Shown here piece after piece: positions 3,365 through 3,387 of a stretch of DNA of 3,658 nt (positions within the stretch are counted from its first letter, which is position 1; each line of letters starts with the position of its first letter). The stretch is from Escherichia coli. GTDB lineage: Bacteria; Pseudomonadota; Gammaproteobacteria; Enterobacterales; Enterobacteriaceae. Position numbers and translations under genes: made by a program. The notes beneath the pieces are model-generated. The model was not told the DNA's origin. It did not search any database and saw only the letters and a program-made list of their open reading frames with translations. Where the stretch lies: assembly GCF_003334815.1 (NCBI RefSeq), contig NZ_QOWO01000081.1; one strand, written 5' to 3'.

Positions 3365-3387
3365 ATTATGAATGTTGTAACTAAACA
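3365..3387. promoter_or_regulatory. Ter-like replication terminus site (Tus-binding); core GAATGTTGTAACTAA
   Basis: 3370-3384 matches the Ter core consensus GNATGTTGTAAYKAA at every position, including the conserved G at position 6. Ter sites flanking the origin are known in R1/R100-type plasmids. Confidence 0.55.

Follow-up and report, generated by a model that had tools for sequence, protein, structure and literature searches.

The closest described relatives of the element analysed here are terRR and terRL (TerR1/TerR2) of the plasmids R1 and R100 (NR1), which were reportedly identified by Hill in 1988; their role in stopping over-replication is said to have been shown by Krabbe in 1997. 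An inverted pair of Tus-dependent Ter sites, terR1/terR2, is also carried by plasmid R6K, an unrelated replicon (pi protein, iterons) whose terminus does not lie next to the origin in use. [quoted passage not shown] The counter-clockwise fork is stopped at terRL almost at once, and the clockwise fork circles the plasmid and stops at terRR (PMC10331603). According to the accounts of Krabbe 1997 given in PMC4999828, PMC10331603, and PMC7174701, R1 without Tus or ter forms branched molecules, rolling-circle intermediates, and multimers and is inherited unstably; these accounts explain this by a helicase that displaces the nascent strand on re-entering replicated DNA. Fork arrest by Tus in one direction is credited to the same work for R1 homologues in the corresponding passages of PMC10331603, PMC4999828, and PMC7174701.

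The Ter site is defined as an asymmetric 23-bp sequence with a conserved core at positions 8-18 (ATGTTGTAACT) plus A19, and the pattern of Tus contacts on ter sites is described in the same paper (PMC8347550). The complex is locked as unwinding of the DNA reaches the non-permissive face and the base C6, carried by the leading-strand template, flips into a Tus pocket (PMC10331603). The tus gene is resident in most Enterobacterales (PMC6549158).

The window, by which we mean the whole stretch of DNA analysed (3,658 bp), is an IncFII basic replicon of the R1/R100 type with copB, the CopA RNA, tap, repA1, and oriR (Table 1). The replicon type was identified from copB/repA2, CopA, and tap; RepA1 (PF02387) was present as well, and an oriR with a DnaA box was found downstream of repA1. 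Proteins bearing the name 'incFII family plasmid replication initiator RepA' shared 97% identity with the repA1 product. The whole replicon showed 95-97% identity to R1 (NZ_KY749247) and R100 (NC_002134) and was not identical to either, and the 830 bp after repA were 97% identical to R100 and 94.7% to R1. At least 5000 plasmid records matched the window. Among the matches listed, the best were mostly 90-99% identical, and the hosts of replicons of at least 90% identity were mainly Escherichia, Klebsiella, Shigella, and Salmonella. Upstream of copB a hok/sok-type module was observed (830-1124). Several of the closest plasmids carry an insertion of about 1.35 kb between hok and copB, with aphA (acid phosphatase) and a hypothetical gene (e.g. 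L001 2779-3956).

Table 1. Features of the window, in order of position.
Feature	Position	Strand	Remarks
sok	830-985		Rfam match, 83.8 bits
Hok-like ORF	975-1124		49 aa
copB/repA2	1408-1656	+	annotated in relatives
CopA antisense RNA	1794-1885	-	Rfam RF00042, 101.9 bits, E = 1.5e-19; annotated in relatives
tap leader	1903-1977	+	annotated in relatives
repA1, IncFII replication initiator	1970-2827	+	285 aa, GTG start, PF02387
oriR region	2990-3175	+	approximate limits; elements read from sequence
DnaA box in oriR	3003-3011		TTATCCACA
AT-rich stretch in oriR	3090-3150		
Repeats in oriR	3095-3103 and 3118-3126		TCNTTTAAA
Left Ter site, terRL equivalent of R1	3230-3252	-	reads TTTTCGTGTGTTGTAACTAAAGT; position 1 at 3252
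Trap interior	3253-3364		112 bp; GC hairpin 3332-3348 and conserved stretch of about 25 nt
Right Ter site, terRR equivalent of R1	3365-3387	+	reads ATTATGAATGTTGTAACTAAACA; G6 at 3370
Hairpin-rich block	3424-3520	-	ACACGCTCGTAAGCGGCCC...CGCTAACGCGGAGATACGCCCCGAC...ACTCCGACCGCGCACAG; right of both Ter sites

The right Ter site was compared with TerB (AATAAGTATGTTGTAACTAAAGT), which was read directly from the + strand of E. coli MG1655 just upstream of tus. The two were alike at 18/23 positions and at 12/12 positions of the core (6 and 8-18), G6 included. Window 3372-3383 reads AATGTTGTAACTA, which is the conserved core, and the G-C pair of Ter position 6 has its G on the + strand at 3370 and its C on the minus strand. 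An earlier note on this DNA had claimed a Ter consensus core with G6 at this place and had named alignment to TerB and to the R1 Ter sites as a check; the claim was borne out by that alignment. Mismatches to TerB were found only at positions 2, 5, 7, 22, and 23, which are variable among E. coli ter sites and are without base-specific Tus contact (PMC8347550). The pattern GNNNGTTGTAACKA had two exact matches in the window, against 0.00 expected from 200 dinucleotide-preserving shuffles, and it occurred twice in the 44 kb of R100 and twice in the 50 kb of R1, in all cases at the Ter locus.

Positions 1-19 of the right Ter site were identical in the window, R1, and R100, and the distance from the repA stop to position 1 was 538 bp in all three. 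This agrees with the earlier proposal of a Tus-binding Ter site beside a unidirectional IncFII origin as in R1/R100, since the site holds the homologous place in both plasmids. The window differs from the terRR of R1 and R100 at positions 20-23, which read AACA compared with CATC in R1 and CTTC in R100; at positions 20-21 AACA is closer to TerB than the R1 and R100 versions are. Window 3384-3387 is separated from R100 (L003 about 40227-40230) by a 2-bp indel and substitutions. The AACA variant was also observed in Escherichia sp. MOD1-EC7003 (L009). The identification of the site was correct; what it represents, the terRR equivalent of an IncFII replicon, had been described before.

The earlier note had no mention of an inverted partner. 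The second GNNNGTTGTAACKA match lies at 3234-3247 on the minus strand, within the left Ter site, which was like TerB at 18/23 positions overall and at 11/12 core positions, position 8 being G. The corresponding sequence is TTTTTGTGTGTTGTAACTAAAGT in R1 and TGTCTGAGTGTTGTAACTAAAGC in R100, and the left site of the window differs from that of R1 only at position 5. The offset of 403 bp from the repA stop to position 1 was common to the window, R1, and R100. A G at position 8 is presumably also found in R6K Ter. The replicon type, both offsets, the inverted orientation, and the 112-bp spacing are the same as in the R1/R100 pair. We put the probability at about 0.9 that 3365-3387 is the right-hand Tus-binding terminator of this R1/R100-type replicon and that it forms a 112-bp fork trap with its partner at 3230-3252.

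The position-1 ends of both Ter sites face each other across the trap interior. TerB, located directly upstream of tus in MG1655, reads 5'-AATAAGTATG...-3' on the + strand, and a clockwise fork near TerB moves toward increasing MG1655 coordinates. The legend to Figure 1A of PMC10331603 places TerB among the sites that block the clockwise fork, so a fork reaching the position-1 end would be the blocked one. A second argument comes from C6 of the right Ter site, which lies on the minus strand; this is the leading-strand template of a rightward fork, and the rightward fork would thus be blocked. The earlier note had left the blocked direction open. With two agreeing arguments it can now be assigned: the right Ter site is predicted to block forks moving from left to right, i.e. 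arriving from the oriR side, and the left Ter site forks moving from right to left. The polarity obtained by both arguments agrees with the published terRL/terRR scheme of R1. The locus thus shows an inverted Ter pair with inward blocking faces, oriR to the left, and a conserved hairpin block to the right.

The chromosomal Ter sites (TerB and TerA-J) with Tus are the second system of comparison. They have the same asymmetric 23-bp site, the core (6 and 8-18) of TerB is identical in the right Ter site, G6/C6 is present, and opposed polar barriers form a trap, as do the two sites of the window. The trap of the window spans 112 bp and lies beside a unidirectional plasmid origin, whereas the chromosomal trap spans hundreds of kb and lies opposite a bidirectional origin. 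The plasmid trap serves to keep a single fork from running into DNA already replicated, whereas the chromosomal trap confines the meeting of two forks.

The following course of replication is proposed. RepA would open oriR, and the leading strand would be primed to the right of both Ter sites, with one fork leaving rightward. A leftward fork or helicase would cross the right Ter site by its permissive face and be stopped at the left Ter site, making replication unidirectional. The rightward fork would circle the plasmid, re-enter through repA and oriR, cross the left Ter site by its permissive face, and run into the blocking face of the right Ter site. C6 of this site (minus strand, 3370) would flip into the Tus pocket and lock the complex, and the returning fork would halt some 55 bp before reaching the 5' end of the nascent strand that it had started. 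With a halt at this distance the nascent strand would not be peeled off and no rolling circle would start, so that over-replication, multimers, and plasmid loss would be avoided. By analogy, the plasmid of the window is expected to behave like R1 in its Tus dependence, fork arrest, and phenotypes. One step of this course may need qualification. A helicase loaded at oriR would have to cross the blocking face of the right Ter site to expose 3424-3520, which may point to incomplete Tus occupancy or to a different start.

The RepFII replicon of pEC958 shares 99% identity with that of R100. When pEC958 was screened by transposon insertion, the 'repA4 region' came out as required for stable maintenance, and the authors placed the ter sites in that region (PMC4398462). 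As the region may include the priming site, this result is not specific to Ter, and the requirement may reflect the adjacent priming site and not Ter.

The blocks of oriR were kept across the diverged relatives described below. We take its TCNTTTAAA repeats to be RepA binding sites, after Giraldo and Diaz 1992. To the right of the trap, the hairpin-rich block was nearly invariant in all diverged relatives, even in a Serratia locus devoid of Ter sites. In 3395-3658 the minus strand folded better than shuffled controls (z = -2.6). We regard the block as a candidate region for primase recognition and for the start of the leading strand. We labelled it a 'G site' ('G4-type'), an assumption made after Masai and Arai 1989. 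A blastn search of 3395-3560 against 50,697 phage records gave chance matches only (E >= 2), so the 'G4-type' label has no support from sequence similarity to phages; a literature search on single-strand initiation signals in R1/R100 found nothing relevant. In R1 the leading strand starts to the right of both ter sites (PMC10331603), which agrees with the position of the block. An extra conserved hairpin block of about 60 bp (…AATGCCCGCCCTTGCAGCGGACT..GTCCGCGCCGGTTCGG…) was observed between oriR and the left Ter site in loci L012-L035; the window, R100, and R1 lack it.

Inside the trap, the GC hairpin (CCGGCCC-TTC-GGGCCGG) kept its stem in relatives, and its loop varied (TTC, GAA, or AAA). About 25 nt (GGCCGGAACAnnGTCGCTTTTA, 3340-3364) adjoin the blocking face of the right Ter site. 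The conservation of this upstream flank was 0.65-0.96, except at positions -11 and -10 (0.38), compared with about 0.3-0.5 for the downstream flank, and across genera GGCCGGAACAnnGTCGCTTTTA was far more conserved than the other Ter flanks. No promoter-like site came out of a promoter and terminator scan of 2828-3658, and its terminator-like hairpins were weak and about as frequent as expected by chance. The hairpin and T-run before the right Ter site had been considered as a terminator, a reading that was dropped on this result.

The layout also allows a reading in which the right Ter site additionally, or mainly, gates initiation, with Tus occupancy throttling or timing the firing of the opened origin, perhaps through the conserved 25-nt element at the blocking face. 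The right Ter site turns its blocking face toward oriR on the left and has the putative priming block on its other side, and the unusual conservation of the 25 nt hints at an added constraint. However, the copy number of IncFII plasmids is set by CopA and CopB. The reviews consulted moreover give Ter only the roles of termination and unidirectionality, and for the loss of Tus they describe over-replication, not a change in copy number (PMC4999828, PMC10331603, PMC7174701). We therefore regard an initiation gate as unlikely and prefer the fork trap.

The plasmid-database matches were all at least 90% identical among the matches listed, so diverged loci were sought by a RepA scan. Scanning one genome per species with a 5-sequence RepA alignment gave 28 loci with RepA 60-99% identical. 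They came from about 15 genera, namely Klebsiella, Lelliottia, Pantoea, Erwinia, Cedecea, Izhakiella, Buttiauxella, Mixta, Yersinia (Yersinia pestis), Citrobacter, Hafnia, Serratia, Intestinirhabdus, Salmonella (Salmonella arizonae), and Enterobacter. Diverged loci were confined to Enterobacterales, apart from two probable contaminants. A Lachnospiraceae MAG contig (L010) and contig146 of Streptomyces morookaense (L011) carried an IncFII repA 96-97% identical to that of the window, and L011 had both Ter sites too; these are most likely E. coli plasmid contamination of the two assemblies. Judged from the hosts of related replicons and from the distribution of tus in Enterobacterales, the host of the window plasmid would be expected to encode Tus.

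In the 28 loci (178 kb), all 39 strict Ter matches fell 350-750 bp after the repA stop, a range that makes up 10.4 kb, and none fell in the other 168 kb. Presence was counted in the 26 diverged loci with enough downstream DNA. The right Ter site (+) was found in 25/26, with the exact GTTGTAAC core in 23 and T11A in two, and the left Ter site (-) in 24/26, with the exact GTTGTAAC core in 17 and one core mismatch in seven; both sites were present in 23/26. Spacing was compared in 25 replicons, among them the window and R100, and in 22 of these the two sites were 98-112 bp apart.

The alignment of the Ter sites was anchored on positions 10-19 only. G6, though outside the anchor, was present in 26/26 right and 26/26 left sites, position 9 was T in 26/26 right and 25/26 left sites, and positions 9-19 were nearly invariant. 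Position 7 took several bases, positions 20-23 were almost without information, and the 3' flanks were essentially random. The conservation follows the Tus contact map and not codons, and on comparative grounds this argues strongly that Tus binding has been selected for.

The left site of six diverged replicons (L015, L017, L020, L023, L025, and L034) showed T11C (GCTGTAAC), and the right site of two (L030 and L032) showed T11A (GATGTAAC); in each the partner site stayed consensus. These variants could be weakened barriers, tuned barrier strengths, or an adaptation to a divergent host Tus. The exceptions to the paired arrangement were Serratia bockelmannii (L029) with no Ter site, Ca. Erwinia dacicola (L031) with the right site only, and Izhakiella capsodis (L021) with the left site only. 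All three keep the downstream hairpin block. A locus with no Ter site and two with a single one indicate that the trap is not indispensable.

The motif could instead be kept as part of a coding gene, or for another protein such as RepA, and not for Tus. ORF 3190-3384, which matches the repA4 region of older nomenclature, runs across both Ter sites; its TAA stop (3382-3384) coincides with right-Ter positions 18-20, as the earlier note had pointed out in doubting that the ORF is a real gene. 'RepA4' is annotated in some records (PMC2762410). The doubt was justified, and the comparison of relatives argues for it better than the overlap does. In most relatives the frame that ends at Ter positions 18-20 had no ATG or was cut to an open stretch of 2-48 codons; among them were L004, L006, and L007, at 91-93% identity to the window. 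Two close relatives had a 1-bp gap within the ORF. It is the AACA variant that creates the TAA stop in the window; the 'stop' codon position is TAC in R100, and TAC or TAT across R100 and R1-like sequences. The PGAP (NCBI) annotations of R100, R1, and several other relatives had no CDS at this ORF. Across the sequences compared, ORF 3190-3384 is thus not conserved as a reading frame, and conservation tracks Ter positions, with G6 fixed and position 7 free.

For another protein such as RepA one may point to oriR, where a third copy of the 8-mer GTTGTAAC was observed (3033-3055, minus strand; core AAGGTTACAACCG at about 3040-3052) and where the element was kept at about +210 after repA in 20/28 related loci. 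This element was rejected as a Ter site, as it has no G6, has G at position 9, and usually has CT at positions 18-19; the shared 8-mer may be a coincidence. A coding or RepA-related role for the motif is accordingly very improbable, and binding of Tus remains the preferred reading. A chance match or a decayed relic without present function is hardly credible, since, although short motifs can arise by chance and some relatives lack one or both sites, shuffles gave an expectation of zero, R1 and R100 had only their two matches at the Ter locus, and the core was kept across genera while the flanks diverged.

For annotation, the analysis is useful in fixing the predicted polarity of the right Ter site, in adding the partner that had been missed, and in showing that 'repA4' is not a conserved gene in the relatives compared. 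For the family, the census shows that IncFII-type replicons of many enterobacterial genera have kept a fork trap close to the origin. It lends support to the idea that selection acts on plasmid fork traps, from which the chromosomal Tus/Ter system may have descended.
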